DNA of 58,549 bases from the NCBI GenBank assembly GCA_030650095.1, contig JAUSEE010000031.1, positions 1 to 58,549 on the forward strand. The letters run 5' to 3'. The notes beneath the pieces were generated by a model. It did no database searches, was not told the DNA's origin, and saw only the letters and a program-made list of their open reading frames with translations. Below, piece by piece: positions 12,519 through 32,632 of this stretch (positions are counted from its first letter, which is position 1; each line of letters starts with the position of its first letter). Made by a program: the position numbers and the translations under genes. This DNA comes from Candidatus Buchananbacteria bacterium (lineage in GTDB: Bacteria > Patescibacteriota > Patescibacteriia > 2-01-FULL-39-33).

Positions 12519-12562
12519 TCTGCTTGTTAATTGTTAAAAGTAAATTGTCAAATGTTAACTTG

Positions 12563-12619
12563 AGCCGTTGTCCAGGATTGAACTGGAGACCTTCCCGATT
12601 ACTATCGGGACGCTCTACC
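12563..12619 (-). pseudogene. degenerate tRNA-Thr fragment with the anticodon arm replaced by a TCCCGAT-N4-ATCGGGA hairpin
   Basis: GGTAGAGCG + hairpin + AGGTCTCCAGTTCAATCCTGGACAACGGCT; 5' acceptor strand absent. Confidence 0.75.
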
Positions 12620-12648
12620 TGTTTATTACAGATACATACAACTGCCTA

Positions 12649-12690
12649 AGCCGTTGTCCAGGATTGAACTGGAGACCTCATCCTTACCAT
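12649..12690 (-). pseudogene. 3' half of intronless tRNA-Thr(GGU) = left att junction
   Basis: ATGGTAAGGATGAGGTCTCCAGTTCAATCCTGGACAACGGCT; identity to tRNA begins exactly at the anticodon loop. Confidence 0.9.
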
Positions 12691-13183
12691 CAATTTAGTA
12701 TAGGATATTTACCCTGACAACAGCTAAATTTAAATAATAAATAGAAGGTTTATGACAATTTTATCGATCACCTGGATGACCTACTCCTTGCAGCTCAAAG
12801 AATACTTTTTCGAAATCTATTATTAATTAAGTAATGTAACTTTATCAAAAATTGTCTAAAAAATCAAGCATAGATATTATCTTTCAAAGTATGGGTATTC
12901 CTAAAAAAATATCTATTTTTTTGACCAAAGTATACTTATATGATTTTTATCGAACATAGCCAGTAGGAGGTAGCTTAAAATCGTTAGCTGACTAAGATGA
13001 CCTGTTAGTGGTTATCTAATAAAATTTCCTATCATAATATCCTTTCCTCTCTAAATAACTCAAAACATCATTGCTTCTGTTAATATCAATGACTCTCAAA
13101 TCACGCATATTATATTTGGAAAAAATAATTAATAAATAATTAACAATTGGTCTGCTTGTTAAGAGCATTATTTTAGAACTATA

Positions 13184-13852
13184 AGTGCCACCAGGTGGCA
13201 CTAGTGGCACTTTATTGCCAGAGAAATATGGTGATCCTGACTAGTAACCACACACAGAAAGGTTAGAGTTAAAACCTAATAATCCCCTTAACTTATCTTT
13301 GGTTAAATAATATTCTTTTAAAATATCAAAATTTAAATTATATAAAAAGTAAATACAATTAAATCGTTCATCTTCCCATAGTTTTTAAGATTTTTATCTG
13401 ACATATTATTGTTTATTTAAAACACCGATATAATCATTACCCCAATCATCAAAAACAGTAGACGCTGAAATCCCAGAAATGATATGTCAATAAAAATAGT
13501 TGCGCATTGGCGATAACTTTTTCAAGTCACCCTACACAATTTCAAACATAAACCGTGCCACCCAAATAATAATAGTTTGGGTTGTTATAATTATTTCTTC
13601 TTTATATCAAAAATCGGCGAAAAATGCCAGTAGGCTAACCAATCAGCGAACCGCACCTTAATGAATAGAAAAGCCCTTTTTATTGGGGAAATCTATTTCA
13701 GGAAACAAAAACAGGCACTAAAATACCTGTCTTGTCCAGTCAGCTCCGCGCTATAAACGTCTATATTTAGGTGTTTTTAATTTTATATCTTTGCCACCTG
13801 GTGGCAAACATAATAACTTTTCTAACTATAGGGTGTTCACCTGGTGAATACC
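13184..13852. promoter_or_regulatory. cluster of CACC-W-GGTG palindromes (putative protein-binding sites)
   Basis: AGTGCCACC-A-GGTGGCACT 13184-13202, TTTGCCACC-T-GGTGGCAAA 13790-13808, GGTGTTCACC-T-GGTGAATACC 13832-13852; a fourth copy at 27183-27205. Confidence 0.5.
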
Positions 13853-14043
13853 TTGATAATATTTTTTCTAAACTTTTAGCCGTATCCCATGCAGTCATAG
13901 TGTTGTGATGAATATTTTCAATCACTTGTCGCATAAATCTATAACGGACTTAAAGAAGCAAAATAACTTAGAATGACGATTAATTAACCAGGACTGACAA
14001 AACCGTAATTAAATGATATGATTTTGATAATAACCCATTAATT

Positions 14044-15189
14044 ATGCCTTATCTTTCAACTGAAAGCCTGTGTCTGGCAAAAATGCTCTTGATTAAGGGT
14101 GATTATTTAAGTAACTCACCAGTTACAATCGACTTAATTGAAAAAACTACTGGCATAAAAGCTCCATATATCGCCAAAGCATTAGGTCATTTATTGAAAC
14201 TACGGATTATTACTATCCAGAATCTTCAATTAGATAAAAGATGTGTTGCCACAACAACCCTAGTCACCTGTAAAAAAACTGGCAACATTATAGAGCTGGT
14301 TAACAAAAAATTGCCGAAGGTAATTAAAGCAGTTAATGATTATCTGGAGTACGTCGAAACTTGCTACGATCCTTATAGTGGTGAACACTTAAAAGATAAA
14401 CCGACTGAAGCAACATCTTTTCTTCTAAATTTTAATAAAAACAAATTGAGTGAATTTATAGACAGCTACCTTGCTGACTATCGCGCAAACATGTTTGCGA
14501 CGAAAAACAAATTATTTTTTAAGGGCAGAAAAGAAGGAGTTCGATCTTTTTTAGTAAATACTGTTAATGCTGAAGTCTCTAAATTAAAAGCAAAAGAAAA
14601 AAAATTATCAAATATCAGTTTAGTCCTAAACTGCAATAGTGATGATCAACTGCCTCATGATATAGTAGAGATATTAATGTTAATGGAGAATGATAATAAT
14701 ATTATCATTACCAGTATTGATATATTTACTCATATTGATGTTGACCCAGAACAAGGTAATGCAACGATCAGTAGGCGCTGTAATAAAGTAGGACTAATCA
14801 TTACTGATTGGATGAATAATAAACTGCTTGAAAAAGATAATAACAATGACCTATCTTTTAGACACAGATTTATAGTCGAAAACGGAATGTCCAAAAGCTA
14901 CTTGCAAATTAATGATTATCAGGAAATACCACACACTAAGAAACCAGCCCTTATTATCAATTATTTTTATAATAAAATTAAGTACGATAAAACTTTTAAG
15001 AACTTTCATGATTTCAATAAATCTTTACCAAAGACTGAGAAAGACATTACCTCAGATGATTTCACTGATCGGATTAATAATATCAATAAAAGGGTGCGCA
15101 AAGTAACCGATGGAGTAATAGACGAGATTATCATTAAGGGCGAAAACGATGCCAGGGAGGCCAATATTTACCGCTGGTTAATTGATTAA
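14044..15189 (+). CDS. hypothetical protein, possibly with winged-helix domains at both termini
   Basis: 381-aa ORF; HTH-like N-terminus (IDLIEKTTGIKAPYIAKALGHL) and OmpR-like C-terminal pattern; weak. Confidence 0.7.
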   Translation: MPYLSTESLCLAKMLLIKGDYLSNSPVTIDLIEKTTGIKAPYIAKALGHLLKLRIITIQNLQLDKRCVATTTLVTCKKTGNIIELVNKKLPKVIKAVNDYLEYVETCYDPYSGEHLKDKPTEATSFLLNFNKNKLSEFIDSYLADYRANMFATKNKLFFKGRKEGVRSFLVNTVNAEVSKLKAKEKKLSNISLVLNCNSDDQLPHDIVEILMLMENDNNIIITSIDIFTHIDVDPEQGNATISRRCNKVGLIITDWMNNKLLEKDNNNDLSFRHRFIVENGMSKSYLQINDYQEIPHTKKPALIINYFYNKIKYDKTFKNFHDFNKSLPKTEKDITSDDFTDRINNINKRVRKVTDGVIDEIIIKGENDAREANIYRWLID

Positions 15190-15428
15190 ATCCAGTCGGT
15201 ATTTTGGTAGGTGTTAATAACTTAAAATAAAATGGCTGTAATTAGCCATTTTTAATTTTTTTAATTTTTGCAAACACCCACCCAAAAGTCAATAGATTCA
15301 ATATTTTTATAATAGTACAATTAGCTTATCGATTAGCGCTAAATGAACATTGACAACTAAATAACAAAAAGTCAGAACAACAAACAACAGTTTGTCCAAA
15401 TTAAATAATTAACTTAACAATTAAATTT

Positions 15429-15836
15429 ATGAAAAACACAACTTTCAACAACCAGTCAGTAAAATTATTCAACATATTATTTGCCTTTAACGATGCTGTT
15501 AAGCATGGGGCGATAATTGATGCCGATTTGATAAACAGAATAAATAAAGTCAGTAAAAAAATAGCAAAAGCCGCTAGTGAAGCTATGAATATCGGCATAA
15601 AGAAAAATCTGACATATGATACGCCAAGAAGAAAAGTATTTCCTAAACAATATGCCGATCAAAAGACTAGGCTAATATTGGATATCGGCTCAGCGTTTAC
15701 AGATGCTATCTATGTTAAAGCTTTAACTGACAAAAAAGTAATAAAAGAAATGAGTGAGATCAATGATAAGTTATTAGACTATCTCAGAAAATCCCCTGCA
15801 AAAACAAAGGCCAGTAACAAATCAAAGAAACAATAA
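15429..15836 (+). CDS. hypothetical protein
   Basis: 135-aa ORF with two similar helical halves; AT-rich leader. Confidence 0.7.
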   Translation: MKNTTFNNQSVKLFNILFAFNDAVKHGAIIDADLINRINKVSKKIAKAASEAMNIGIKKNLTYDTPRRKVFPKQYADQKTRLILDIGSAFTDAIYVKALTDKKVIKEMSEINDKLLDYLRKSPAKTKASNKSKKQ

Positions 15837-15842
15837 TCAAAT

Positions 15843-16019
15843 ATGAACAATAACAGAAAAAAGAAAATCATCGGCTGGATTGATATGTCTGGCAATAATC
15901 GTTGCCTAGCATGCGACGATGGTGACGGTAATGAAACAATCACTGTTGCTGATCTTGAAAAAGCAGAATGCCAGATAAAGTGCGACATCTGTGGTCACTT
16001 GATCAAAGAAGACTACTAA
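15843..16019 (+). CDS. small Zn-finger-like protein (58 aa); not in the ORF track
   Basis: Manual translation MNNNRKKKIIGW...RCLACD...KCDICGHLIKEDY*; followed by a terminator. Confidence 0.65.
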   Translation: MNNNRKKKIIGWIDMSGNNRCLACDDGDGNETITVADLEKAECQIKCDICGHLIKEDY

Positions 16020-16028
16020 TTAATTACA

Positions 16029-16066
16029 AAACCCCTCGGGGGCATTAATTTTCCTCGAGGGGTTTA
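16029..16066. terminator. probable bidirectional terminator
   Basis: AAACCCCTCGGGGG...TCCTCGAGGGGTTT between convergent genes. Confidence 0.65.
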
Positions 16067-16275
16067 TTAGTAGCTTCAGTATTATTCGCCTGATAAATAA
16101 TTCTCATTAATTGAATAAGTTTGAGACCCTGGATCAAAGCATCCTCTCTGCATCCTCTCTGCTAATTTCCTTATAAGGTGGCTTAAAATCGTTAGATGGC
16201 TAAGATGACCTCTTGATAATTTAAATATCTTTAAGTGGTTGTGAACACGTTTAAATAACTCAGGATTTATCTCCA

Positions 16276-16689
16276 TTATTTATCTAATGCTTTCAGAACA
16301 GCAATATAATCGCATTTACACCATACATTACTACATGATTGAATTGGTAGTGGTTGTTTTTCCAGTATTTCTTTTAAATTATATATCCCATGAGCTTGGG
16401 CGCATTCTTCGCAGCAACCAGGATTATTTATAATCTCCACATTATCAACTACCTCGCTATCAATATATGATTTTAATATTTCTGATAATGCTATTTTATG
16501 GAATTTAATATAATTGCTAAATATAAGTGATGCATCAATATTTCTCTCCCTTTTAAACTTAACCATTTCGGCATAAATATATGCTATCTGAAAATTGTCA
16601 TTATTTTTCATTGCTTTTTCTAATTTTTCATGAAGAGACTTCCATTTATAATCATCTTTACTCCAGTTCTTATTGTTTAACTTAGACAT
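16276..16689 (-). CDS. hypothetical protein with Cys-rich C-terminus (MuF/phage minor-head-like motif)
   Basis: CCEECAQAHG...PLPIQSC..VWCKC resembles the CxxC...PxHxxCRC motif. Confidence 0.6.
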   Translation of the reverse strand: MSKLNNKNWSKDDYKWKSLHEKLEKAMKNNDNFQIAYIYAEMVKFKRERNIDASLIFSNYIKFHKIALSEILKSYIDSEVVDNVEIINNPGCCEECAQAHGIYNLKEILEKQPLPIQSCSNVWCKCDYIAVLKALDK

Positions 16690-16830
16690 ACATATTAAAT
16701 TAATTTTTTCTACTCATAATCTCATTATGGTTATAGTGATCAAATCTAGTGTCTGATTCAAATAATATGGCCAGGGCCATTAATATCTTTTTATCAATGT
16801 TAATAATATTTTATCCCACTTCCCTATTAT

Positions 16831-17397
16831 TTATTTCAGTAAATCAATATCAATTATATCAATTAGGGGGATACAAAATTTTCTGCTAGATTCTTCGTAG
16901 CCGTAATATCCACAATCTAAACCTCTAAATTTTCCTATTACTAAATAAATATCTCTTTCAGAATCAATTTGATCACTAGTCAATCCATCATATCTTTTAA
17001 GTATATAGCTAACCCACTTACCTTTGTGCTGATAAGCGGTTATGTCTAATAAGTCCTCTGGTGATGCCCAAAAAAACTCGTAGTCTTTTCTTTCTCCTTT
17101 GATAAACTCATCATCATAAGGCCAAAATTTTATTCCATCAATTTGGCTTTGATTGCTAATTTTTCCCTCCCATTTAATAATTTTTTCAATACTAGTTGAG
17201 GTTGCTATATTATTTGGGTTGCTTAAATCATTAAAAGTTAAATCTGTAATTAATTTTTCATCGACTATTGGTTCTGAATAAACAACATTTGGCTCATCTT
17301 CTGTTGCTGTAATATTTAATTTATTATTCGTCTGTAAATTACTACTACAGCCAGATAAAACAAAGATAAAAATTAATAGTGGTAATATTTTTATCAT
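16831..17397 (-). CDS. putative lipoprotein
   Basis: Signal peptide with lipobox LSGC. Confidence 0.75.
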   Translation of the reverse strand: MIKILPLLIFIFVLSGCSSNLQTNNKLNITATEDEPNVVYSEPIVDEKLITDLTFNDLSNPNNIATSTSIEKIIKWEGKISNQSQIDGIKFWPYDDEFIKGERKDYEFFWASPEDLLDITAYQHKGKWVSYILKRYDGLTSDQIDSERDIYLVIGKFRGLDCGYYGYEESSRKFCIPLIDIIDIDLLK

Positions 17398-17449
17398 ATT
17401 ATTTTTTTTAAATAATCCATAAGAAACCCGCTAGCGAATACATTATCTT

Positions 17450-18649
17450 TTATTCTTTAGTTGTATCAGCATTGGGGAGCTCTTCAAATTTAACTGACAT
17501 TGTAGGATTCCCTCGGGTTAGCTTTTTAATTGTCAAATCTTCTATTTTATTATTGGCTATACGAAGATTATTTTCTGACGACAGGAGAGCATCTTTGGTT
17601 TTTTGGAGATGATCTATGGTTTTATCTATTTCTTCGATGGCGGTTTTAAATTTACGACTGGCTAGATCATAATTTTTTGCAAATCCTTCTTTAAATTTAT
17701 TTACATTATCTTCAAAGTTTGTAATATCAATATTCTGATTCCTTACTAAAGCAAGCTCAGCCTTGTATTTAAGCGAATTCATAGCTGCATTACGTAGCAA
17801 GGTTATTATAGGAATGAAAAATTGTGGACGAACTACATACATTTTTTGATATTTATAAGAAACATCAATAATACCAATATTATATAGCTCATTTTCGGCT
17901 TCCAGAAGCGTCACAAGCACGGCGTACTCACACTTCTTCTCTATGCGATCTTTATCAAGCTCACGCAAAAAGTCTTCATTTTTATGCTTTGTGGCGGTCT
18001 CATCGCCTTCATTTTTCATTTCGAACATAATGGAAATGATTTCATTGCCAGAATCATCTGTTTCGCGATAGATATAGTCACCCTTACTGCCTGACTTGGA
18101 ATTATTGTCCTTTTCAAAATATGCTCGCTGGAAACCAGTAGCACGGAGTTTATTAAATTCAGTCTCACAATGTTGCTCCAAAGTTTCGCCAACCATTTTT
18201 GTACTGAGTTTTAATTTCATGTCCTTATAGCGTTCGATCATCTCGTCCTTTGACTTCAATTCGTTTTCATATTTATTCCTCAATGAAGTTTCAAGAAGGT
18301 GTTTTTCGTGTTCTTTACTTTGAAGTTTGGCAGTGAGACCATCACGCTCTTTCTCGATTTTATTGACCGCCTCAGTGACAGCAAGTTTTTTCTGAAGTTC
18401 TGCGTTATTGATTTTTGATTTTATTTCAGCTAATTCGGATTCCTTGTATGCAAGATCTTTTTGTAATATATTGGTAATATTTGCTTCAGCAAGTTTAATT
18501 GCATTTTCTTTTTCATTTTCTGCAATGTTTAATCGCTCTCGTAATTCTTCCTCAAATTGATGATCTCGAACTTGCTTAAGAATATCAGCAAAACCAGCCT
18601 CATCGACTTTGAAAACTTTTTTACAATTTGGACATATAATTTCTTTCAT
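17450..18649 (-). CDS. DUF2130-family coiled-coil protein
   Basis: CPNC N-terminus, [45 protein letters not shown] motifs. Confidence 0.85.
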
Positions 18650-18719
18650 ATTGGTTTTTTAATCTTATAATGGTTTTGTTTTGAAATAAAAGGTAGTTAA
18701 CTCCGTTTCCATAAATTTT

Positions 18720-19457
18720 TTAAAATCTTCTACGATAACCGCCTCGGCCCTTCCAGTTTGGGGCTTCCATGATCATAGAATTAGCTAAATTTTGTTTAGG
18801 TTTATCAAATGCAAAATCTTCTAACAATTCCGCTCCTTGAATTCTGTCTAGTCTAAATGTTCGTAAATCATGAGCCAAATGACAATTAGCAACTACATAA
18901 GTCTTATTCAAAGAATATGGATCAACTATCCTCCAAATCCCCTTATAACGAATCTTTATTGACCGACTCTTATTTATACCAGCTTCCAAGACTGAATAGT
19001 AATTCACTTTTGTCTCGACTGGTTTTGCATGATCAATAACCACCTCATTATATTTTTTACGTGCAGTATTATATGAAGCTAATTGTCCCTCACTAAATTT
19101 TTGTTTAATACTTTCTAAATAATTAACTTTCTCTTGTGCCCTACTTGTTCCTCTGGAATATTTTAATGGATCACCAGTAAAAGAAAGTAATTTATTTATA
19201 TCACTCTTTGACGCCTCAAGCTCACGCCTCGTGCGACGCCCACCGCTAACCGAAATATACTCTGAAGAATAAGATTTTGTTTTACATACAGAACAAAATC
19301 TGCCAAAGCCAGTAATTAGCGCCTTATCTTTAAAATCTGATAACAATTTTATTTCTCCACAACGAGGACAAATCTTGGAATTACCGCTACGTAAATCATG
19401 AATAGTATCCTGTATATTATTGACTATTTCATGATTTATAATTTTTTTTTTACTATT
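18720..19457 (-). CDS. Zn-ribbon + WYL-domain reading frame (probably translated as a -1 frameshift extension of the helicase)
   Basis: Frame is open from 19457 with no ATG before the track start (TTG 19346); CPRC...CSVC; WYL motif RIVDPYSL...YVVANC..RTFRLDRI. Confidence 0.8.
   Translation of the reverse strand, partial: NSKKKIINHEIVNNIQDTIHDLRSGNSKICPRCGEIKLLSDFKDKALITGFGRFCSVCKTKSYSSEYISVSGGRRTRRELEASKSDINKLLSFTGDPLKYSRGTSRAQEKVNYLESIKQKFSEGQLASYNTARKKYNEVVIDHAKPVETKVNYYSVLEAGINKSRSIKIRYKGIWRIVDPYSLNKTYVVANCHLAHDLRTFRLDRIQGAELLEDFAFDKPKQNLANSMIMEAPNWKGRGGYRRRF
19392..19451 (-). promoter_or_regulatory. putative programmed -1 ribosomal frameshift signal
   Basis: A_AAA_AAA heptamer in an A10 run (19442-19451), 6-nt spacer, 15-bp stem (19423-19438 with 19392-19406). 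Confidence 0.7.
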
Positions 19458-24199: not shown

Positions 24200-24318
24200 A
24201 AATTTAAATAAATTCTCATAAATATTAATTTTAATAATACCACTTTTCACTTGATAAGTCAAAAGAAAAACAGGAGCAGTTTTTATGTCTGCTCCTGTTT
24301 TTATAACAATAATTTATC

Positions 24319-24861: not shown

Positions 24862-24892
24862 AAAATTATAAATTTAATATGTGAATGATTAT

Positions 24893-25708
24893 TTAACGAC
24901 AAACAACTGCTTCTTCGCCAATTACATCACTTAAATATTTCTCTACATCAAAGGAGTCACCAAGTTGATCTATTAAGCCATTATCCAAAGCCTTCTGACC
25001 ATCCATAGAATTGCCATCAGCTAATTGTTTTACCTTCTCAATATCCAGTTTTCTATTTTCTGCAACATTTCTGACAAATATATCATAGCCAGTTTGCAAA
25101 TTAGCTATGAGCATATCTTTCTCTTCTTTAGTTAATTTTTTATCTGAATTTCCAGTATCCTTATACTTGCCAATGCTTAATTGATTAAATGTTAATCCTT
25201 CTTTTTGGTTTTTATTAACATTATCCAAATATGACATAGTTATTCCAATCGATCCAACATCAGATAAATCAGAAGCAAATATCCTGTCAGCTCCACTGGC
25301 GGCAAAATAAGCTGCTGAAGCTCCCATGTCCCTGATTAAAGCCACTGTTGGTTTTTCCGATCGCTTAAGAGCATTGGCAATTTCTTGACCTGTGGTAGGC
25401 CAGCCCCCACCAGAATCTATGCTTAATAATATGGCTTTAATATTTTCATTGGCATCGGCGTCTTTGATTTGATTCACTATTTCTTCTGAAGATGAGCAGT
25501 CGGCACACTCCTCGTTCTCTTGGATGTAGGTATAAAGATCGCCATATAAATTTATTTTAGCGACATTGCAATCGCCATAAACCAAGGAATCATCATCAAA
25601 CCACATAATCACAGCGATAGACCAAAAAGCTATAACAGTTACTATTAGAATAATAACAGATATAGCTTTGGATATTTTTTTGATTTTTGGTGGTAGATGA
25701 AATTTCAT
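24893..25708 (-). CDS. sppA: signal peptide peptidase SppA (S49)
   Basis: IDSGGG, GASAAYFAAS, VGSIGI, GKYKD, GLIDQLG motifs. Confidence 0.9.
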   Translation of the reverse strand: MKFHLPPKIKKISKAISVIILIVTVIAFWSIAVIMWFDDDSLVYGDCNVAKINLYGDLYTYIQENEECADCSSSEEIVNQIKDADANENIKAILLSIDSGGGWPTTGQEIANALKRSEKPTVALIRDMGASAAYFAASGADRIFASDLSDVGSIGITMSYLDNVNKNQKEGLTFNQLSIGKYKDTGNSDKKLTKEEKDMLIANLQTGYDIFVRNVAENRKLDIEKVKQLADGNSMDGQKALDNGLIDQLGDSFDVEKYLSDVIGEEAVVCR

Positions 25709-25718
25709 AGATTATATC

Positions 25719-26060
25719 TTATTTTTTATTCTTTTTACTAAAAACCACTTTATTAAATATCATAGTAATAATAATTGCCAGAAAAGCATAGCCAACAATC
25801 TCCCCAAAAAAACCAACAAGCCCATTGCTCTCAGTAAAATTAATATAAATTGATCTACTTTGAAGCAAAAGAACAATAATAAAAATAATCATGAACATTT
25901 TCCATGTTCTCCGACTATTATTGTCATCTTTATTTTTTGATAAGACGGTTGAATCTTTCGGAGTTGAAGCAACATCATCTATTTGTTTGACTTTAACGCC
26001 ACACCCACCACAAAAACGGCTATTTTTTTCTATGACCAGCCCACACCTTGAACAAAACAT
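25719..26060 (-). CDS. zinc-ribbon membrane protein
   Basis: MFCSRCG...FCGGCG plus two TM helices. Confidence 0.8.
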   Translation of the reverse strand: MFCSRCGLVIEKNSRFCGGCGVKVKQIDDVASTPKDSTVLSKNKDDNNSRRTWKMFMIIFIIVLLLQSRSIYINFTESNGLVGFFGEIVGYAFLAIIITMIFNKVVFSKKNKK

Positions 26061-26089
26061 AAATTTATTATTTATTATTTTTTAAGAAT

Positions 26090-26911
26090 TTATTTACATG
26101 TTCCCCAAAAACCTCTTTTAGCGGCTCTAGCGACCTCTTGTTCATTATTTTGCAATCCTAACGCGTAATTAAAATCGCCAATATGGTAATTTGCAACAGC
26201 ATAACCTGCGTATACTAAATTTTTTTCGACGCTTATTTGTTCATCAGATTTAAGTTTACTAAAATCAAGAACTAATGGATCTACATCACTGCTTAGAATC
26301 GAAACATATCTCAAAAGACGTGGCTTCAACTTATCCACCGATTTATAATCTTCGGGAGTCGCTAAATAGACATATTTATGCTCGATAAACCTCTTTAAAA
26401 AATCAGTAGCCAATCTTGATCGACAATCATTACTACCTATGTCATAGATCCCAGTAATCTCTATGGTTCTAAAAGTTATAAAATTTTCATTTCCTTTTAT
26501 AATTAAATAGGATACGATAATAGTATTATTATCAACAACTTTCTCTACCCAAACTGATTTATTGTCATCTGGATCATTAGAAATTTGTTTTTCACTATCA
26601 ATTATAAAACCGTTTGGGTTAGAGAGGTAGACTGGATTAGTCGTCGAAGGCACATTATTAGCATTCCTATCTTCATCTGCTATCCTCTGTTTTTCGATTA
26701 AGTTATTAATAACATCTTTAGCAACCAAAAATCCAAAGGCTATAGCTATAATTACGACGACAATAATAATTATTTTAACCAAAGTTGAAAAACTTTTATT
26801 CTCTCCCATACTAATATCACCTACTGTCACCGTACTACCACAGCTAATACAAAATTTATTACTTGGTTTAAATTTTTGTCCACATTTTGGACAATTTTTT
26901 GGTTTTTCCAT
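26090..26911 (-). CDS. zinc-ribbon + TM + thermonuclease (SNase)-like protein
   Basis: CPKCG..FCISCG, TM helix, then VEKVVD..TI, RLLRYV, LVYAGYA, ARAAKRGFWG SNase pattern; ATG 26911 preferred. Confidence 0.75.
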   Translation of the reverse strand: MEKPKNCPKCGQKFKPSNKFCISCGSTVTVGDISMGENKSFSTLVKIIIIVVVIIAIAFGFLVAKDVINNLIEKQRIADEDRNANNVPSTTNPVYLSNPNGFIIDSEKQISNDPDDNKSVWVEKVVDNNTIIVSYLIIKGNENFITFRTIEITGIYDIGSNDCRSRLATDFLKRFIEHKYVYLATPEDYKSVDKLKPRLLRYVSILSSDVDPLVLDFSKLKSDEQISVEKNLVYAGYAVANYHIGDFNYALGLQNNEQEVARAAKRGFWGTCK

Positions 26912-26935
26912 ATTTTTAAATAATTTTAAGTAATC

Positions 26936-27054
26936 AAAAAAGGCCACCCGTACTGGTATGGCAATCTTTCAACTGCCCTATGACCTTTCGGACATAGGCT
27001 CACACAAGCAAAACCAGACGGAATGGCCGTCTCTGTGCTCGTGTGAGTCTTTTT
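26936..27054 (-). ncRNA. candidate structured 5' leader/attenuator
   Basis: Several GC-rich stems with GAAA-containing loops and a competing long-range helix ending in a U6 tract, upstream of the 26911 gene. Confidence 0.45.
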
Positions 27055-27214
27055 ATAATCATGCCCGAAGCTAAAGCAACGAGTTTAGATTATCTACTAG
27101 ATTGTATCTGTAATCTACCAAAAAACGGCTCAAAAATCAAGCCAGTGGGCTAACCAGCTAAATAACCAATTAGCCCACAGTAACTCTGTCACCTGGTGGC
27201 AGAGTACATTATTA

Positions 27215-27418
27215 TTAAACCGACCGTGAATATTTTGCTAACCTTAAACAACTGAGGCATAACACTTTTTCTGGTTTTTTTATATGCGGAAAGGAAAGAA
27301 AAACGCGGTATTTAATGAATAATCGAAGGCACCGATTACATCGCCAGCAATTTGCATTCTCCCTTATCTGATATTTTTCTAAATAATAAATAACCTGCCC
27401 ATTAATTCGTTTCAACAT
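27215..27418 (-). CDS. small Cys-rich hypothetical protein
   Basis: 67 aa, CNRC...CLSC, directly follows the 27422 gene. Confidence 0.55.
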   Translation of the reverse strand: MLKRINGQVIYYLEKYQIRENANCWRCNRCLRLFIKYRVFLSFPHIKKPEKVLCLSCLRLAKYSRSV

Positions 27419-27421
27419 AAG

Positions 27422-28195
27422 CTACTGGTTTAATAACTCCTCTATTAGTTGGCTAGCCTCAAATTTGGATAATCCTTCTGAAGTTTTAAGATGTTCTTCC
27501 AGTTCTTCTTTTTCAAAATATCTTTGACTGATTAAATTATAAAGAAACCTCTTTTGCTTGGCAGTGGCTGGAATAAAGCCAAATTCATCCCCCTGATCAG
27601 CTACAAAAGCGTTATTCACGGCGTCTGGGAAGCGCTGGGAGCTATTCTCTATATCAACCTGAACATTATGACCTCTTGAATAATCAACAGCCTCTGAGCG
27701 ACTGCTATCTAACGCTTCTGACAAATTTTCGATGTCTTGAGTGAAAATATCAGACAAGCCAGTTGTTCTGATCACAGCGTCTATGTAGGATGACTTTTGG
27801 CTCATCTTGATTGTCTTGTTCACATCCCATTGGTTTTTAGAAAGAGTGGCGGCTCCTCTGCCTTGCCCAACCACTTGATTATTTCGACAAAGATTACAGA
27901 CATAAGCGATTATATCTTTGACCTCACTAAAAGCGTTCATGGTGTCGTCATCTCTCTTAAAAGTGGCAGTTAAATTATAAATGTTTGCTAATTTTTCAGC
28001 TCCACCTTTCGCCAAAGATTTTCTGCCTTTTATTTCATAATAATCCTGATTCTCCTGCAGTTTGGGCAGTACTTGAGAAATAAAATAACTTCGCTTCGCC
28101 AGCAGATTATCCACTCCTTGTTTAAATGCCTCCAAAGTATCGGCCATCGGTTGAGCAATATTATCGGACATTGTTGTTGATAGTGCTTGAGTCAT
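27422..28195 (-). CDS. phage-type protein, probable single-strand annealing protein (Rad52/Redbeta-like)
   Basis: KSLAKGGAEKL...NKTIKMSQKSSYIDAV...SDIFTQD motif and a C-terminal ATxKQ helix pair. Confidence 0.65.
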   Translation of the reverse strand: MTQALSTTMSDNIAQPMADTLEAFKQGVDNLLAKRSYFISQVLPKLQENQDYYEIKGRKSLAKGGAEKLANIYNLTATFKRDDDTMNAFSEVKDIIAYVCNLCRNNQVVGQGRGAATLSKNQWDVNKTIKMSQKSSYIDAVIRTTGLSDIFTQDIENLSEALDSSRSEAVDYSRGHNVQVDIENSSQRFPDAVNNAFVADQGDEFGFIPATAKQKRFLYNLISQRYFEKEELEEHLKTSEGLSKFEASQLIEELLNQ

Positions 28196-28380
28196 ATGAT
28201 TTTAGTTATGATTAATTTGTTTAACTCATACTCAACATTTATTTTGTCACCAGTGTTGAAGCCACAAGCTAATAAGTAATTATTGACTATGCGAATATAC
28301 GGGATAATTCGACGATTATGATTGAGATGACTGACAGTCATTGTTCTGACTGCGCTATCGTTATTGATTGTTTCTGACAT
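28192..28380 (-). CDS. SymE/AbrB-fold small protein
   Basis: PYIRI...LLACGFNTGDKINVE resembles the SymE signature. Confidence 0.65.
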   Translation of the reverse strand: MSETINNDSAVRTMTVSHLNHNRRIIPYIRIVNNYLLACGFNTGDKINVEYELNKLIITKII

Positions 28381-28398
28381 AAAAATTGATTAAGTTAA

Positions 28399-28566
28399 TT
28401 ATTGATCCATTTGGCCGCACTTCTTGCACACGCCGATATAAATCACCTTGTCATTTTGAATATCAAGCATGGATATGGTTTTATAGCGATGCTTGCATTC
28501 GGCTTTTCTAAGATGATTGACGACTTCTTGATTGAGGCCAATTTCTCGCAGATTAGTCTTAGACAT
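28399..28566 (-). CDS. small hypothetical protein (55 aa); not in the ORF track
   Basis: AGGAGGTG SD, MSKTNLRE...CKH...CKKCGQMDQ*. Confidence 0.6.
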   Translation of the reverse strand: MSKTNLREIGLNQEVVNHLRKAECKHRYKTISMLDIQNDKVIYIGVCKKCGQMDQ

Positions 28567-28741
28567 GTTCTCTCACCTCCTGTTTGACTTTAGGTTTATT
28601 GTTTTGAGGATTTGGTCCGACTGGACACGGTTCTCCTCCTAAATCCAACCACCTGAAAATACGGTTAAAGTAGCTTGATCGTCTGTAAGCTGACAAAGAA
28701 ACCAATGGAGTTATATCCATATTGGTAATTGAGTTAAACAT
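28559..28741 (-). CDS. small hypothetical protein
   Basis: 60-aa ORF filling the gap in a co-oriented gene run. Confidence 0.4.
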   Translation of the reverse strand: MFNSITNMDITPLVSLSAYRRSSYFNRIFRWLDLGGEPCPVGPNPQNNKPKVKQEVREHV

Positions 28742-28755
28742 AGCTGATTTGGTTA

Positions 28756-29055
28756 TTAATTAATTGGTTCAACTTGCAGATAGTAAAACAAATTGACTCG
28801 TTTGGGATAAGTGCTGATAACCTCGCCGTGTTCATCTTTGCGATCAACATAAGTAATACTTGGTATGGCACGTTCCCCGCGTTTGACTCTAAAGTTATTA
28901 GCCAACCATTGCTTGAAAGTAAGGCAATTATAATATGGGTCATAGTTTTTAACTTCTGCCTCGCCATACCTTCTGGCTATTTCTTCGGCCACCATTTTGG
29001 CAGTAGCCGTCGATCCTTTGTAGTTGGATTTAATAATGGATTTGATTGATTCCAT
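28756..29055 (-). CDS. ArdC N-terminal-like ssDNA-binding protein
   Basis: LTFKQW....RVKRGERA...VNLFYYLQV matches the ArdC/DUF1738 N-domain pattern. Confidence 0.75.
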   Translation of the reverse strand: MESIKSIIKSNYKGSTATAKMVAEEIARRYGEAEVKNYDPYYNCLTFKQWLANNFRVKRGERAIPSITYVDRKDEHGEVISTYPKRVNLFYYLQVEPIN

Positions 29056-29653
29056 AAATTTGTTTGATTAATAATTTAGTAAATAAAAAAGCCACCAGTC
29101 GACTTTTAAACACTGACGGCTTGAGAAAGATTTAGCTATTAAACTAAATCAGAGATGGGGTATTTAATTATTAAATTAGGGCTTGGGGGAGCGGTTGATT
29201 AAGGAATCATCTATCAATATGGGAACTAGGACATAAAGGAATCATCTTCTTCTGCGACCAAATTTAAAGCTTGGGGGTGGTTTGGAAATAATTTCAAAAT
29301 AAAAATAATCTTGGTTAAAAAAATTCCACCAAATTTTTTAAACTTTTTTAACATCTAGTAAATTACTATTACTCTGCCAACCCTACTAAGTAGATATGAA
29401 AAAAAATAATTTCTTGTTAATAAACATATTTTATCCAATATACGCTTGTCTTGTTTAAATGATTAATAGTAAAAAATAATAAAAAATGTAACTTTACATC
29501 TAAATTTAGTGTTTTTTTGCGATGTGTCTTGACATTTAATTTCCCCACTAAGAATCATCATTAAAAGATGTTATTTCGACAAAAAAACAGAGCTTTTTTG
29601 TGATAAAAAATATCGTTTTCTTGTCTAAATTTATTATTTTTTCACAACGACAC

Positions 29654-29682
29654 TTGACAAAATGAAAATACTCGTCTATAAT
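29654..29682 (+). promoter_or_regulatory. consensus sigma70 promoter
   Basis: TTGACA-17 bp-TATAAT upstream of 29805 and the first integrase. Confidence 0.75.
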
Positions 29683-29804
29683 TATATTTAATAAGCATCA
29701 CAACTAAATAAAAAACAAAGACGCAGCCAAGGGCTGTGTTTTTTGTTGCTGTCTGACTAAATGTTGGCAAAAAAAGCTTATTAAAAGATTAACTTAGATT
29801 ATTT

Positions 29805-30302
29805 ATGGCAAAAAAATTAAAATTCACTCCACTTACTGCTATCAAAATGAAATGTCTGAACTGCCAGGGATTCAATAAGATGGGCGTCAGGAGGTGCGGA
29901 CATCAAAATTGTCCTAATTTTCCCTATAGATTAGGCAATAATCCTAACCGTAAGGGAATCGATAATGGAATAATGACCAAAAACAATCATGGACTGGAGA
30001 AATCCTTAATTGAGTCGATAAAAAACAGGCAAAACAAGGCTGATAACACACTCATACCAAGGCCACTCTCAACTATTAGACAAGAGTGTCTTGATTGTTG
30101 TTTGGATCAGCCAGGAGAAGTATCTTTTTGTCCAGCTCTAGAATGTCCTTTTTACTTATTTCGTTTTGGACGCAGACCGACAGACAAAGAAATAAGTCAG
30201 TTCCTTATTGATTGCCATGAGCCAGAGATATTGAATGAAGCATATATCGACCTAGCAACTCAAGTCAAGAAAATCCTTAATTCAGTCAAAGAAAATAAAT
30301 AA
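29805..30302 (+). CDS. protein with a duplicated 4-Cys domain
   Basis: AIKMKCLNC..VRRC...NCP.FPYRLG and TIRQECLDC..VSFC...ECP.YLFRFG. Confidence 0.75.
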   Translation: MAKKLKFTPLTAIKMKCLNCQGFNKMGVRRCGHQNCPNFPYRLGNNPNRKGIDNGIMTKNNHGLEKSLIESIKNRQNKADNTLIPRPLSTIRQECLDCCLDQPGEVSFCPALECPFYLFRFGRRPTDKEISQFLIDCHEPEILNEAYIDLATQVKKILNSVKENK

Positions 30303-30317
30303 ATAACAATAAAAATT

Positions 30318-31340
30318 ATGAACAACAAAAACATCAAAGAATTATTTGATGATTTTATTAAACAATGCCGCTACATCACAAAGTTATCTGAATCATCAAT
30401 TGACGGCTATAATTCAACTTTTGAGCTTCTGCTTAAAATCTATCCTGATTTGACAGTCGAAATGCTGACTCCAGCACTAATGACAGAATTCTTTGAAAAA
30501 TTAGAGAAGAGAGCCAGAATAGTTGGGCGAAACAAAACAGTTAAAGTCGGCATTAAAAGCTCAACTGTGGCCACCTATCGATCAAAGCTTAATAAGTTTT
30601 TCAATTGGCTGGTAAGCAATGGATATCTTAAAAGCGATCCCTTTGGGGGGATGGCGTACCCAGATGTCGATTACGACGACAAAAAATTCCTCCGTAAAGA
30701 GGAGTTGGAAAAGATTGTTGCTGCTATTTCCACCAGATCGAATAATCTTCTTGTTAGAAAACGCGATCTAGCCATGTTTTACACTCTGCTTTATTGCGGC
30801 TTAAGGCGCGGGGAATTAATCGGTCTTAAGGTATATGATATTAATCTCGAAAAAAGAGAAATGACTGTGGCAGCAGAAACATCTAAAAGTAAGAATTCTA
30901 GAATTATTCCAATCCACCTAGAGCTAGTAACACTGTTTAAAGATTATTTGGCAGAAAGAAAAAAACTTAGATATCAAACATCATCTCTGTTCGTTTCCAA
31001 TAACAGGGACGCTGGTATTACTTTTAACGGGCTTAAACATTTTGTTGATAACATAAAAAACGCGTCGGGGGTGAATTTTCATCTACACCAACTGCGACAC
31101 ACATTTGCGGTCAATCTATTAAACAATCACAGCGATATAGCAAAATTAAAACAACTAATGGGCCACAGAGATATCAGAATGACTGCCAGCTATCTGCGTT
31201 GCCTGCCCACCGAGTCTATGAGAGCTGATGTAGAATCACTGAGATTAGATAAGATGTGTTGGAGATATTTCAGATATGATTCAGAGGATGTTTGCCAATC
31301 TGCGACCGTAAATGTTCGGCAGAAGCGGCCAAATAAATAG
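30318..31340 (+). CDS. tyrosine recombinase (XerC/D-like)
   Basis: GLRRGEL, HQLRHTF, MGH, TASY: catalytic R-H-R-H-Y intact. Confidence 0.95.
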   Translation: MNNKNIKELFDDFIKQCRYITKLSESSIDGYNSTFELLLKIYPDLTVEMLTPALMTEFFEKLEKRARIVGRNKTVKVGIKSSTVATYRSKLNKFFNWLVSNGYLKSDPFGGMAYPDVDYDDKKFLRKEELEKIVAAISTRSNNLLVRKRDLAMFYTLLYCGLRRGELIGLKVYDINLEKREMTVAAETSKSKNSRIIPIHLELVTLFKDYLAERKKLRYQTSSLFVSNNRDAGITFNGLKHFVDNIKNASGVNFHLHQLRHTFAVNLLNNHSDIAKLKQLMGHRDIRMTASYLRCLPTESMRADVESLRLDKMCWRYFRYDSEDVCQSATVNVRQKRPNK

Positions 31341-32163
31341 TAGTGGTCTTAATATCGCTGTGACCCATCATTTTAGAAAGAGAAAATATGTCACTGCCTC
31401 CTTCCAACATCAGAGTGGCAAAAGTATGACGAAGTTTATGAACACCAAAATTCTTACCCATAGCTCTGGTGATATTCAGCATCAAGCGCTTTAAGCCGTC
31501 TTCGCTTAAATCCAAATTTTTATTTAGAGCAGTGAAAAAACCAGGACAAGATTTACCCAGATTTTGGCGTTCTGCCAAATAACGTTTTAAAATTTCAGCC
31601 AGTTTATCACAGATTGGAACCACTCTGTCTTTGCTACCCTTACCCATTCTGACAAAAATTGACCTGTTCAATAAATCAACATCAGCATATCTAAGATTCA
31701 ACAATTCTTTCTTTCTTAATCCAGCAAAGAGAAAAACAGACAACACAGCTTGATTTCTGTACTTTGAAAATTTATTTTGATAAGGATAATTATAGGCAAT
31801 TTCCAAGAGTCGCATAGCTTCTTGCTTAGTAAGCCTGGGTGGCAATTTTTTCTCCACCTTGGGCAATTCCATATCTTCTGCTGGGTTGATCTCAATATAT
31901 TTTTCTTTTTGGCACCAGCGAAAGAAAACCACTAATGATTTAAGAAAGGTAATGAAAGAATTGGCTGACCAATGCCTTACTGTGCGGCCATAGAGAAAAA
32001 ATTCCCTGATATTTTTCTCATTAGCTTCTTCAACATGACTAATGCCAGAAAACTTGACATAAATGCTAATGGAATAACGATAGCGTTTTATGGTGCAGGG
32101 GGAATAACCGCGAATAAAAGAAGAATGCTCACAGAATTGATCAGTTAAAGTTTTTATTTCCAT
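31270..32163 (-). CDS. tyrosine recombinase (XerC/D-like)
   Basis: GLRKKEL, GKGSKDR, HKLRHTFAT, MGH, TTIY: catalytic residues intact. Confidence 0.95.
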   Translation of the reverse strand: MEIKTLTDQFCEHSSFIRGYSPCTIKRYRYSISIYVKFSGISHVEEANEKNIREFFLYGRTVRHWSANSFITFLKSLVVFFRWCQKEKYIEINPAEDMELPKVEKKLPPRLTKQEAMRLLEIAYNYPYQNKFSKYRNQAVLSVFLFAGLRKKELLNLRYADVDLLNRSIFVRMGKGSKDRVVPICDKLAEILKRYLAERQNLGKSCPGFFTALNKNLDLSEDGLKRLMLNITRAMGKNFGVHKLRHTFATLMLEGGSDIFSLSKMMGHSDIKTTTIYLAASAEHLRSQIGKHPLNHI

Positions 32164-32206
32164 AAAAATAACACCTCCGAGATTTCAAAAGTGTTATTCT
32201 TGATTG

Positions 32207-32477
32207 AGCCGTTGTCCAGGATTGAACTGGAGACCTCATCCTTCGATTACACCTCTATTTCAAAATATATTAGAGGACTAGACTGTATATCAAGCATGGC
32301 CTTTCGGCTTTAGCTTCCCTTGTCAGTCGTTCGGGCGTGTCAGAGTGAGTGACGCCACGGTCTTAACCATTACTGGCCTTTGACCGTTATTGGGGATTCA
32401 ACAACCAGTTTCCTGATTGAAGGGCGAAGCCTTTTCGGCTCACCATGGATGCGCTCTACCAACTGAGCTACAACGGC
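32207..32477 (-). tRNA. tRNA-Thr(GGU), intron-containing (exons 32442-32477 and 32207-32243)
   Basis: Joined exons give a perfect 73-nt cloverleaf with anticodon arm CATCC-ATGGT^AA-GGATG. Confidence 0.92.
32244..32441 (-). ncRNA. group I intron, 198 nt, no ORF
   Basis: Exon ends in U and intron ends in G; P1 with U.G pair (GGU/GCC); P3 CCCUU/AAGGG; P7 GACUG/CAGUC; P9 CCUCUA/UAGAGG. Confidence 0.88.
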
Positions 32478-32594
32478 ATAATTTTTTAAATTGTCATGTG
32501 TCTATCAGACCTACTCCAGTAAAGAGTTGGTCTATGTTTTCTACTTTATAGCTAAATTTAGAATCAAAACAGGGTTATGCACAGTCCCATATCA

Positions 32595-32632
32595 TTACCA
32601 TGGATGCGCTCTACCAACTGAGCTACAACGGC
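32595..32632 (-). pseudogene. 5' half of intronless tRNA-Thr(GGU) = right att junction
   Basis: GCCGTTGTAGCTCAGTTGGTAGAGCGCATCCATGGTAA, with identity ending exactly after the anticodon loop. Confidence 0.9.

Follow-up and report, generated by a model that had tools for sequence, protein, structure and literature searches.

A putative integrative island that splits a tRNA-Thr(GGU) gene of a Candidatus Buchananbacteria bacterium, and its intron-interrupted spare tRNA

The 58,549-nt contig JAUSEE010000031.1 of a Candidatus Buchananbacteria bacterium (assembly GCA_030650095.1), here analysed at its full length and referred to as the window, contains an intronless tRNA-Thr(GGU) gene that is cut in two, the pieces overlapping only in the seven bases ATGGTAA of the anticodon loop (TTACCAT on the plus strand), and between the two pieces lies a complete but intron-interrupted tRNA-Thr(GGU) gene next to a tyrosine recombinase gene, intA. 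Our best explanation is that a site-specific island has split the host tRNA gene and carries a spare copy that is protected by its intron, and we consider this explanation as a whole to be likely, while its structural half, namely that an integrated element has broken the host gene and brought along a complete one, is well supported by comparison of sequences and held with high confidence.

According to this explanation, a recombinase module made up of intA together with a second recombinase gene, intB, would have recombined a site on the element with the anticodon loop of a single-copy intronless tRNA-Thr(GGU) gene. The element and host sites would share only the 7-bp ATGGTAA, leaving the host gene in two dead halves with neither junction rebuilding a tRNA, and the complete tRNA-Thr(GGU) between the attachment site and intA would stand in for the broken gene, which precise excision would restore. 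Within the 7-bp crossover segment, a 198-nt intron with what appears to be a group I fold separates positions 36 and 37 of the spare, and this intron would self-splice such that the RNA becomes a normal tRNA. The DNA of the spare, being without the right half of the site, would accordingly be unable to recombine with the element's own attachment site, whether in the free (attP) or the integrated left-junction (attL) form about 120 bp away, and would offer no landing place to a second element. Relatives with an intronless spare seem to achieve the same by recoding the anticodon stem.

The split host gene and its empty counterparts

All coordinates refer to the contig, which is labelled C46 in the genome designated G000 (an assembly of 1.16 Mb in 62 contigs with an estimated contamination of 3%), and the sole sequencing run matching the element DNA carries the label groundwater metagenome. 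The tRNA pieces are all on the minus strand (Table 1). The two copies of ATGGTAA (32595-32601 and 12684-12690) are 19,911 bp apart, which bears out the claim of an earlier note on this DNA that two halves of tRNA-Thr(GGU) sharing only this heptamer lie about 19.9 kb from each other. The same note had described a complete intron-containing tRNA gene 117 bp inside a junction and upstream of a co-oriented integrase, and this is indeed what is found, the junction being the left one (attL). The complete spare gene reads from 32477 to 32207 and has both exons identical to the host halves, and the 5' half is contiguous with a TPR/TIM flank that is common to three genomes of the same genus (G001-G003). 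In its default mode ARAGORN calls no tRNA at either junction and also misses the spare gene; when introns are allowed the ends of the spare gene are placed correctly, the intron is misplaced and the gene is called tRNA-Arg.

The empty site is seen in G001, G002 and G003, where TIM, TPR, an intronless tRNA-Thr(GGU) and tRNA-Tyr follow each other without element or 5' half (a gene for the 23S rRNA intervening-sequence protein precedes tRNA-Tyr in G002 and G003), and where the intact tRNA-Thr(GGU) is 97.6-100% identical to the two halves in G000. The question raised by the earlier note of whether element-free relatives have an intronless gene is thereby answered in the affirmative, with no 5' half upstream of the gene in any of the three.

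A layout equal to that of G000 was found in eight further genomes (G016, G362, G314, G141, G349, G385, G054 and G261). Intron-containing tRNA-Thr(GGU) genes occur in 24 of 401 sampled genomes of the class, G000 included, and in seven of the other 23 the gene has intA directly behind it and a separate 5' half ending in ATGGTAA upstream. The heptamer is present at both ends of the element in G000 (19,911 bp), G362 (13,605 bp), G314 (13,530 bp), G054 (8,550 bp) and G261 (9,210 bp) as well as across two contigs in G016 and G141, giving seven genomes with both junctions in all, and in G362, G314 and G054 the far junction lies on the same contig, where non-tRNA sequence is followed by ATGGTAA and then by a 3' half whose acceptor strand fits the 5' half. 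The homologous element in G016, which belongs to another genus of the same family, occupies the same site and is about 71% identical to that of G000 in nucleotide sequence from intB and intA through the intron tRNA and spacer to the 5' half, and its distal end, found on a second contig, is 72% identical over the 220 bp next to the 3' half. Furthermore, the anticodon stem and T arm of the spare tRNA of G016 are unlike those of the split host tRNA, with only ATGGTAA being shared by the junctions, and on account of these differences the spare must be regarded as an independent gene and not as a local duplicate; spare and host half likewise differ in G362, G141 and G349. A chance duplication being excluded by the uninterrupted tRNA in three same-genus genomes and by the recurrence of the layout elsewhere, comparison of the sequences confirms the split layout as that of an integrated element. 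The claim that the gene is not restored at the junction and that the element brings a complete copy has likewise held, in light of the empty sites, both junctions in seven genomes, the tRNA difference in G016 and a contig in attP form (L246) described below.

In five genomes that are 98-100% complete (G314, G054, G362, G016 and G261) a search with the intact tRNA-Thr(GGU) found no tRNA-Thr(GGU) besides the element copy and the halves, and the remaining matches are tRNAs given other anticodons by ARAGORN. It is thus plausible from the gene content that the host depends on the element copy, although the matter is clouded in G000 by a second gene on another contig (C37, see below). With respect to expression, a promoter scan around the spare tRNA returned two sites versus 1.5 expected by chance and no promoter-like site in the 117-bp spacer. 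The sole promoter-like site outside the spare gene is at 32679-32707 on the minus strand, upstream of the 5' half, where the promoter of the host tRNA is expected. As a hint and no more, transcription of the spare may start at the host tRNA promoter and read through into the integrated element.

Two features are additions to the first reading of this DNA, namely the second tRNA gene on C37 and a third partial tRNA-Thr copy that lies 28 bp downstream of the 3' half. The D-stem 3' strand, T arm and acceptor strand of the third copy are the same as in the host tRNA, whereas its anticodon arm differs in having a perfect 6-bp palindromic stem and a 6-nt loop, 18 nt versus 17. Among the 401 genomes this anticodon-arm motif was found, at zero mismatches, only in G000, and the copy may be a scar left by a different element on an earlier occasion. 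A further observation of this sort comes from G261 (contig C13, locus L055), where two candidate 3' halves, consisting of ATGGTAA, a stem and GGTC-like sequence, are found downstream of one element at positions 10590 and 12772, the second of which may be another scar or belong to a tandem element.

Recombinases, attachment sites and relatives in metagenomes

Homologues of intA with 49-69% identity adjoin the same tRNA in other genomes. The residues R150, K175 or K178, H242, R245, H268 and Y277 are invariant in seven intA homologues, and we take them to be the catalytic Arg-Lys-His-Arg-His/Trp-Tyr set of tyrosine recombinases. The closest homologues are from records named Candidatus Parcubacteria, Paceibacteria, Paceibacterota or Minisyncoccia, and the best identity is 33% in IMG/VR and 33% in GenBank phages; the GenBank phage records gave no match to the intron tRNA either. 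As for intB, G016 has a 77% identical copy in equal arrangement, and the loci of 3 kb surrounding the other intron tRNAs gave, with intB as query, only a weaker match over the intA gene and no separate intB.

Scanning metagenomes with an alignment of seven intA proteins recovered at least 80 loci at 57-71% identity and, among the matches listed, most loci with enough upstream sequence have a tRNA gene 29-75 bp ahead of the integrase. The set that was classified comprises 92 rows, 78 of them metagenome loci and 14 from genomes. The earlier note had proposed a survey of homologous integrase pairs for adjacent intron tRNAs, and in the present set an intron-containing tRNA-Thr(GGU) is accompanied by a 5' half in 33 of the 92 listed rows and is without one in eight. 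An intronless tRNA-Thr(GGU) has a 5' half in ten rows and none in seven, tRNA-Thr(CGU) has a 5' half in one row and none in two, and tRNA-Lys(UUU) with no clear 5' half accounts for five; no tRNA was called in 16 rows, four were not parsable and six had too little upstream sequence. Removal of five duplicates leaves at least 39 non-redundant integrated loci, of which 28 have intron-bearing and 11 intronless spares (ten Thr-GGU and one Thr-CGU), and the spare tRNA matches the split tRNA in all 39 integrated loci listed (38 Thr-GGU and one Thr-CGU). The host loop at the junction is ATGGTAA in 35, TTGGTAA in four and TTCGTAA in one of 40 listed loci, as counted before the last duplicate was removed, and the spacer of integrated relatives is 100-230 bp long.

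Other tRNAs were also encountered in the place of the spare. A complete tRNA-Lys(UUU) lies ahead of the integrase in L064, L068, L282, L291/L292 and L309, and a tRNA-Thr(CGU) in L243, L244, L274 and L298, the intA homologues at these loci being 57-63% identical. L298 has a matching 5' half ending in TTCGTAA, and L064 and L068 have degenerate upstream 5' fragments of the Lys tRNA. Since these spares are found at the same place, the design of carrying a whole spare tRNA is not limited to tRNA-Thr(GGU).

The exact 10-mer GGAGTAGGTC has only two copies in the 58.5-kb window, 88 and 78 bp inside the junctions and both on the minus strand, as would be expected for integrase-binding sites in the two arms, and in the relatives AAACAGGTC-like copies are found in both arms, about 100 bp to either side, with the motif also occurring beside the core. 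The sequences directly flanking the core are not inverted repeats in G000 and G016, and as the 3-kb loci of the other intron tRNAs moreover gave no separate intB, a heteromeric pair of intA and intB with one recombinase per arm would fit the arm and intB data. Several of the contigs without a 5' half have non-tRNA sequence ahead of the 7-mer in its place, and in such contigs the 7-mer is often situated within an inverted repeat of the GACCTGTTTA / TAAACAGGTC type.

The metagenome contig L246 combines the two arms. On the left, about 365 bp are 74% identical to that end of the G141 element which adjoins the 3' half; on the right, the sequence matches the spacer that follows the G141 5' half; and the 7-mer is found between these arms and is followed by an intron tRNA and the integrase. 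L246 thus has the attP arrangement of an element whose attL and right junction (attR) are seen in G141 and whose type of bacterial attachment site (attB) occurs in element-free genomes, and it could equally be part of a free circle or of a tandem copy. Since the intron tRNA of L246 is kept inside the element, the intron tRNA travels with it, and this is the opposite of an excision that leaves the intron tRNA in the chromosome, which the earlier note had named as an outcome at odds with its reading.

Two loci deserve mention for their unusual arrangement. About 130 nt upstream of the spare tRNA, L280 has an attP-like site in which the 7-mer is reversed (TTACCAT), the arms on either side of it being symmetric in other respects. 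The upstream region 318-470 of L250 (one locus with L252 and L254) contains a tandem of tRNA-Thr 5' halves that differ from each other, both end in ATGGTAA and lie 75 nt apart, and the element downstream of them has an intron-bearing spare; a later element may have hit the spare of an earlier one, of which the second 5' half would then be the remnant. The idea that L250 and L252 are one element in two hosts was rejected, since they are the same locus, and L252 was dropped from the counts.

The intron and its possible function

The earlier note had taken the insert in the spare gene to be a group I intron, and this claim stands with regard to fold and covariation in 26 homologues and finds no backing in the Rfam group I model. 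With no match to that model, the assignment has to be argued from a manual fold and from covariation. The fold follows the group I helix order P1, P2, P3, P4-P5-P6, P7(5'), P3(3'), P8, P7(3') and P9, including the P3/P7 pseudoknot. The covariation set consists of 26 aligned homologous intron-containing tRNA-Thr(GGU) genes from other genomes, the introns of which are 178-241 nt long and located at position 36/37 in every case. In P1 the exon GGU pairs with an invariant intron GCC, a U.G pair is found at the 5' splice site in 25 of the 26 homologues and the P1 extension covaries. The 74 pairs of the 14 helices are standard pairs in 94.8% of 1887 cells versus 32-46% when the partner is slid by 1-3 columns, a comparison in which the fold is favoured over the slid controls by having been derived from one member of the set. 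The count of double changes is independent of this, and both sides have changed in 40 of the 74 pairs. The value of the observed fold was furthermore reached by none of 500 shuffles on any of five measures. Pairs altered on both sides occur in each of P2, P3, P5, P6, P8 and P9, while P4 (5/6 pairs) and P7 (5/5 pairs) never vary and are hence uninformative. The anticodon and acceptor stems of the tRNA pair across the intron, and the terminal intron base is an invariant G, in 26 of 26 homologues. On the strength of these patterns we take the 198-nt insert to be an intron of group I type that is missed by the Rfam model, and it would self-splice and give a normal tRNA.

The notion that the intron protects the spare gene stems from its location. 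The spare has the same orientation as the element's own attachment core and is separated from it by about 120 bp, and were it to contain a good attB, one would expect the integrase to remove the spacer or to admit another element. The intron starts after ATGGT, and the 7-bp overlap and the entire right arm of the site are thus lost at the DNA level. This notion is in agreement with the sequences of the spares in the 39 integrated loci listed, where the 5' strand of the anticodon stem is the same as in the host half in 20 of 28 intron-bearing versus none of 11 intronless spares, and where the whole of exon 1 is identical to the host half in 11 of the 28. Indeed the listed intron-bearing spares share stems with targeted hosts (CATCC, ACTCC, CTTCC and others), whereas ten of the 11 listed intronless spares have stems that are absent from targeted hosts (CCACC, ACGCC, CCGCC, CTCGC, CACGC, TAGCC and others), and the intronless spare of L296, a locus outside the 39, has C for U at position 33, a mismatch inside the overlap. 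Introns starting with AA, which would recreate ATGGTAA, are likewise unevenly distributed, being found in none of the 28 listed element-borne cases versus six of 16 chromosomal ones (p=0.001, without phylogenetic correction). On the intA tree the type of cargo, intron or intronless, changes about nine times, with at least three changes forced by well-supported branches. An intron and a recoded anticodon stem would then be two routes to a spare that is unusable by the integrase, and we are somewhat inclined to favour a protective role of the intron on account of these patterns.

It may be added that in L264 and L270, which are sister elements on the intA tree, each spare has the anticodon stem of the other's split host tRNA, a pattern that suggests that exon sequence has been exchanged between spare and host copies.

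A number of observations weigh against parts of this explanation. The Rfam model RF00028 (group I) finds nothing in the whole window at its gathering score and nothing in the 651 bases 32100-32750 at E<=10, and no RNA run matching this DNA was found. The association between stem and intron (Fisher p=4.5e-5) is without phylogenetic correction, the stem of one intronless spare (L234) is also found in a targeted host, and the 11 integrated relatives with an intronless spare among the loci listed mean that the intron is not obligatory. In 16 of the 23 other genomes with an intron tRNA the gene has an ordinary chromosomal place beside TPR/TIM with no recombinase in the 3-kb loci, and given these chromosomal copies the intron may be a passenger picked up with the gene. 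The recombination is credited to the module of intA and intB as a whole, no attP form of the subtype of G000 and G016 was seen, and the contigs of the sole run matching the element DNA, which may be the source of the assembly (over 12645-32640, at a depth of about 12), contained neither a circle nor an empty site, the few contig joints found being in tRNA-like repeats or from two runs without the element. Finally, the 42 tRNAs that ARAGORN finds in G000 include a second intronless tRNA-Thr(GGU) on the 2.7-kb contig C37 (2604-2676), about 83% like the window tRNA in the aligned part, and if C37 were genuine the host would not depend on the element and would have a second target and a second source of the tRNA. 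Judged by its content, C37 is however probably bin contamination in the form of a stray contig of another organism, since it duplicates the L33 gene (2375-2536, 48% identical to the window L33 at 7881-8030), since beyond this gene and the tRNA none of 25 relatives, among them the three same-genus genomes, has a match to it, and since a contamination of 3% is estimated for the assembly.

The earlier note's claim of immunity accordingly stands in one part and falls short in another, the two comparative associations supporting it and the 11 listed intronless elements and the presence of the same intron in 16 chromosomal genes speaking against it, and we can do no more than infer such a function. 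Indeed the alternative that survives best keeps the architecture unchanged and regards the intron as a neutral passenger captured together with host tRNA genes, the spare being safe for other reasons (arm sites, or poor recombination over about 120 bp) or else unsafe. This alternative draws on the intronless spares in 11 of the 39 integrated loci listed, on the commonness of the intron in chromosomal genes (16 of the 23 other matching genomes, 400 other genomes having been searched), on the interleaving of intron and intronless cargo on the intA tree, and on an intron tree that leaves element-borne and chromosomal introns unseparated (seven changes, as in shuffles), and the tandem 5' halves of L250 could mean that spare or host copies are hit repeatedly. 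A passenger is however predicted to show neither the difference in stem identity (0/11 versus 20/28) nor that in AA starts (0/28 versus 6/16) among the loci listed, and the position of the intron inside the 7-bp crossover segment likewise argues against this alternative, which we regard as rather unlikely.

It seems very improbable that the island is a dead remnant, that is, an old integration that has lost excision and whose layout has no present function. Such a view could invoke the decay of relatives, with an intA of 121 aa in G022, 180 aa in G141 and 238 aa in G385, and the lack of a circle or empty-site contig for the G000 element in the contigs of the run, but intA (297 aa) and intB (340 aa) of G000 are full length, the residues matching the tyrosine-recombinase set are invariant, both 7-mers and the arm motifs are intact, and the halves are 97.6-100% identical to the intact G003 gene.

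The possibility that the earlier note itself had offered as an alternative, an ordinary tRNA-restoring island in which the 3' part was duplicated, an intron was gained later and the 5' half was duplicated separately, fares worst and can practically be dismissed: it would account for the identity of the spare exons to both halves within the window alone and for the order of tRNA and integrase, which resembles classical islands, but ATGGT precedes the intron site in the 3' half and AA follows it in the 5' half, such that both halves derive from an intronless gene, the element-free relatives are intronless without a 5' half, the order of 5' half, 7-mer, spacer, complete tRNA and integrase recurs in at least 39 non-redundant loci, the complete gene is unlike the host half in G016, G362, G141 and G349, and in L246 the 7-mer connects the two arms of an element that keeps the intron tRNA within it. 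The converse idea that the intron tRNA is native and the halves derive from the element was rejected, as it needs two insertions and the same-genus empty sites are intronless.

Cargo, neighbouring genes and relation to known systems

The cargo of the island (Table 1) has a defence-like part, and none of ten open reading frames (ORFs) compared to PHROG matches a family of known structural function. The cargo of G000 is not shared by G016 within the reach of the G016 contigs. In our view the element is an integrative island whose cargo varies and is partly defence-like and whose attP, spare tRNA and integrase form a conserved module. By the evidence at hand it would not be a phage, given the absence of a structural PHROG match, the identity of intA of at most 33% in IMG/VR and GenBank phages and the defence-like helicase/WYL cargo.

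Table 1. Features of the split tRNA-Thr(GGU) locus and of the putative island in the window
Feature	Coordinates	Strand	Evidence and remarks
5' half of host tRNA-Thr(GGU), positions 1-38, ends ATGGTAA; attL, left junction	32595..32632 (32632->32595)	-	sequence; 41/42 identical to intact G003 tRNA
Left 7-bp core ATGGTAA (minus strand)	32595..32601	-	direct repeat of 12684-12690
Spacer, 117 bp, integrase-proximal arm of attachment site	32478..32594	-	contains GGAGTAGGTC at 32508-32517; conserved with G016 element
Exon 1 of spare tRNA-Thr(GGU), positions 1-36 (36 nt)	32442..32477	-	identical to 5' half
Intron, 198 nt, between tRNA positions 36/37, group I-type fold, no ORF	32244..32441	-	manual fold and covariation
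Exon 2 of spare tRNA-Thr(GGU), positions 37-73 (37 nt), CCA not encoded	32207..32243	-	sequence
intA, tyrosine recombinase, 297 aa, co-oriented with spare tRNA, 43 bp downstream	31270..32163 (32163->31270)	-	Pfam PF00589 E=5e-32, PF13495
intB, second tyrosine recombinase, 340 aa, convergent, overlaps intA 3' end by 71 bp	30318..31340	+	Pfam PF00589 E=1.6e-33
Variable cargo	12691..30317	.	Pfam, PADLOC, Rfam; absent from G001-G003 at site; includes unassigned ORFs
LOOT RNA (Rfam RF03000), full length	26960-27091	-	69.7 bits; between zinc-ribbon/SNase-like ORF and 257-aa ORF
Zinc-ribbon/SNase-like protein	26090-26947		Pfam
S49 peptidase	24893-25708		Pfam
Superfamily 1 (SF1) helicase, 1608 aa	19436-24262		PADLOC matches PDC-S37, MkoA, MkoC, Hhe
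WYL protein	18720-19346		Pfam; PADLOC match
DUF2130	17450-18649		Pfam
Integrase-distal arm of attachment site	12691..12870	-	contains GGAGTAGGTC at 12778-12787; 71.7% identical to distal end of G016 element
3' half of host tRNA-Thr(GGU), positions 32-73, starts ATGGTAA; attR, right junction	12649..12690 (12690->12649)	-	42/42 identical to G003 tRNA
Third partial tRNA-Thr copy, about positions 18-73, joined to chromosomal downstream flank	12560..12620 (12620->12560)	-	sequence

Just outside the element, at 10381-11901 on the plus strand, a large serine recombinase of 506 aa (Resolvase, Recombinase and zinc-ribbon domains) is encoded between tRNA-Tyr and tRNA-Thr(UGU), and G002 keeps a 36-aa fragment of it beside tRNA-Tyr; the tRNA cluster around the element looks like a general hot spot for mobile DNA. 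The gene for the 23S rRNA intervening-sequence protein (PF05635) is located at 12156-12518 on the minus strand, between the tRNA-Thr site and tRNA-Tyr, and is present in G002 and G003 and absent from G001, where the two tRNAs are 1 nt apart.

The closest parallel in terms of strategy is the tRNA-dependent lysogeny of actinobacteriophages (Fionnbharth, Cluster L), for which a cognate phage tRNA is reported to be required for viable lysogens (Guerrero-Bustamante & Hatfull, mBio 2024, PMC10865867). As described there, a tyrosine integrase uses an attB in a host tRNA and a core that is too short to rebuild the gene (about 10 bp there and 7 bp here), and the element studied here likewise carries a complete tRNA cognate to the split one. 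The cases differ in that the integrases there are lambda-like, bind arm sites and belong to temperate phages of Actinobacteria whose tRNA has no intron (PMC10865867), and in the text of the paper introns are not mentioned, the word 'intron' being found only in the title of a reference. A passage of the same paper describes the prophage Lj965 of Lactobacillus johnsonii, which resembles the present element in that the tRNA is not rebuilt at the junction and a cognate tRNA is encoded, and no intron is mentioned in that passage. The classical tRNA-restoring islands and prophages, to go by the same source, have in common with the present element a tyrosine integrase and a crossover in a tRNA gene by way of stem-loop symmetry, but they carry the 3' part of the tRNA in attP and rebuild the gene over a core of 30-45 bp, whereas identity here ends after 7 bp (PMC10865867). 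Compared with tRNA-dependent lysogeny, what sets the present system apart is that the spare lies directly between attP and int, that the intron is inside the crossover segment in most members, and that the host has a small genome.

Introns of the tRNA genes of Caldiarchaeum subterraneum are presumably of the protein-spliced archaeal kind. The tRNA-Thr(GGU) locus of this archaeon resembles ours, with a 5' fragment upstream of an intron-containing tRNA-Thr(GGU) and a recombinase-encoding insertion between them, and integration of a mobile element is proposed in the abstract of that study to lie behind both intron gain and the scattering of fragments (Sugahara et al., PLoS One 2012, PMC3293823). 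The locus differs in that it is archaeal and its recombinase separates the fragment from the gene, and the abstract reports neither a 7-bp core nor an attP form nor a survey across a family. Randau and Soll have proposed, as cited in Kanai (Life 2015, PMC4390854), that disrupted tRNA genes, whether split or with an intron, are retained as a protection against integrating elements. This proposal, in the form in which it is cited, is similar in that an interruption of the anticodon loop removes the recombination site in the DNA and the RNA is repaired, and different in that it concerns archaeal host genes, whereas here it is the element's own copy, in a bacterium, that is interrupted by an intron of ribozyme type.

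The intron itself is like the known group I introns of bacterial tRNA genes in being small and ORF-less, in its position in the anticodon loop and in forming P1 with the end of the 5' exon, and it differs from them in that Rfam RF00028 is blind to it. Proteobacterial tRNA-Ile and tRNA-Arg also carry group I introns in their anticodon loops. Introns of group I in the cyanobacterial tRNA-Leu(UAA) and tRNA-fMet are covered by references in the review of Hausner et al. (Mob DNA 2014, PMC3984707). In this review tRNA-Thr has no occurrence, and according to it every phage intron known at the time lay in a protein-coding gene despite the many phage tRNA genes. The IStrons, in which a group I intron is combined with an insertion sequence element (PMC4227781), are similar in that a ribozyme spares the host the cost in gene function of a mobile element, but there the intron splices the element out of a host transcript, whereas here it interrupts the spare of the element and the host gene stays broken. 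In open-access papers and preprints we found no description of an intron-containing replacement tRNA borne by an element.

Integration that destroys a tRNA gene and is compensated by the element was, as presented in that paper, first shown experimentally in 2024 in mycobacteriophages (PMC10865867), and the same strategy would now be found in a large family of islands that are not phages and whose small-genome hosts are apparently uncultured (metagenome-assembled) bacteria, with at least 39 integrated loci and one attP form. The new component is an intron of ribozyme type within the recombination core of the spare gene, which bears on the old open question of whether a tRNA intron has a job at the DNA level, and a natural contrast is provided by spares with an intron, with a recoded stem and with a stem of host type. 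Furthermore, tRNA-Thr(GGU) joins the bacterial tRNAs with group I-type introns, and a blind spot of the Rfam model is exposed.

The finding also suggests a route for the spread of such introns that is free of homing endonucleases. In G022 the TPR flank passes without 5' half or spacer directly into an intron tRNA, behind which intA is shortened to 121 aa, and this layout is what recombination between the 5' half and an identical exon 1 would leave; intA is likewise shortened in G141 (180 aa) and G385 (238 aa). The exon repeats in G000 are perfect (36 and 37 bp), and the same paths of decay are therefore open to it. Carried to its end, such decay would leave a chromosomal intron-bearing tRNA-Thr gene. 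No integrase remnant was found at the 16 chromosomal intron-tRNA loci (3 kb each), and the intron tree, being mostly unresolved and having seven changes between element-borne and chromosomal introns as in shuffles, does not reveal the direction of transfer. We put forward, tentatively and as a possibility somewhat short of even, that interruption or recoding of the anticodon arm is a general anti-recombination device of mobile elements, that the present integrase family, which has to bring along a whole spare tRNA beside its attachment site, shields the spare by one or the other of these means, and that elements deliver introns as a by-product. If this is true, recombination between the exon repeats would lock the element in place, as may be seen in G022, and finally leave a chromosomal intron-containing tRNA-Thr gene that is immune to integration, and in this way the patchy distribution of an ORF-less intron in the class would be accounted for, and a bacterial, testable case of tRNA introns that exist to defeat integrases would be at hand.

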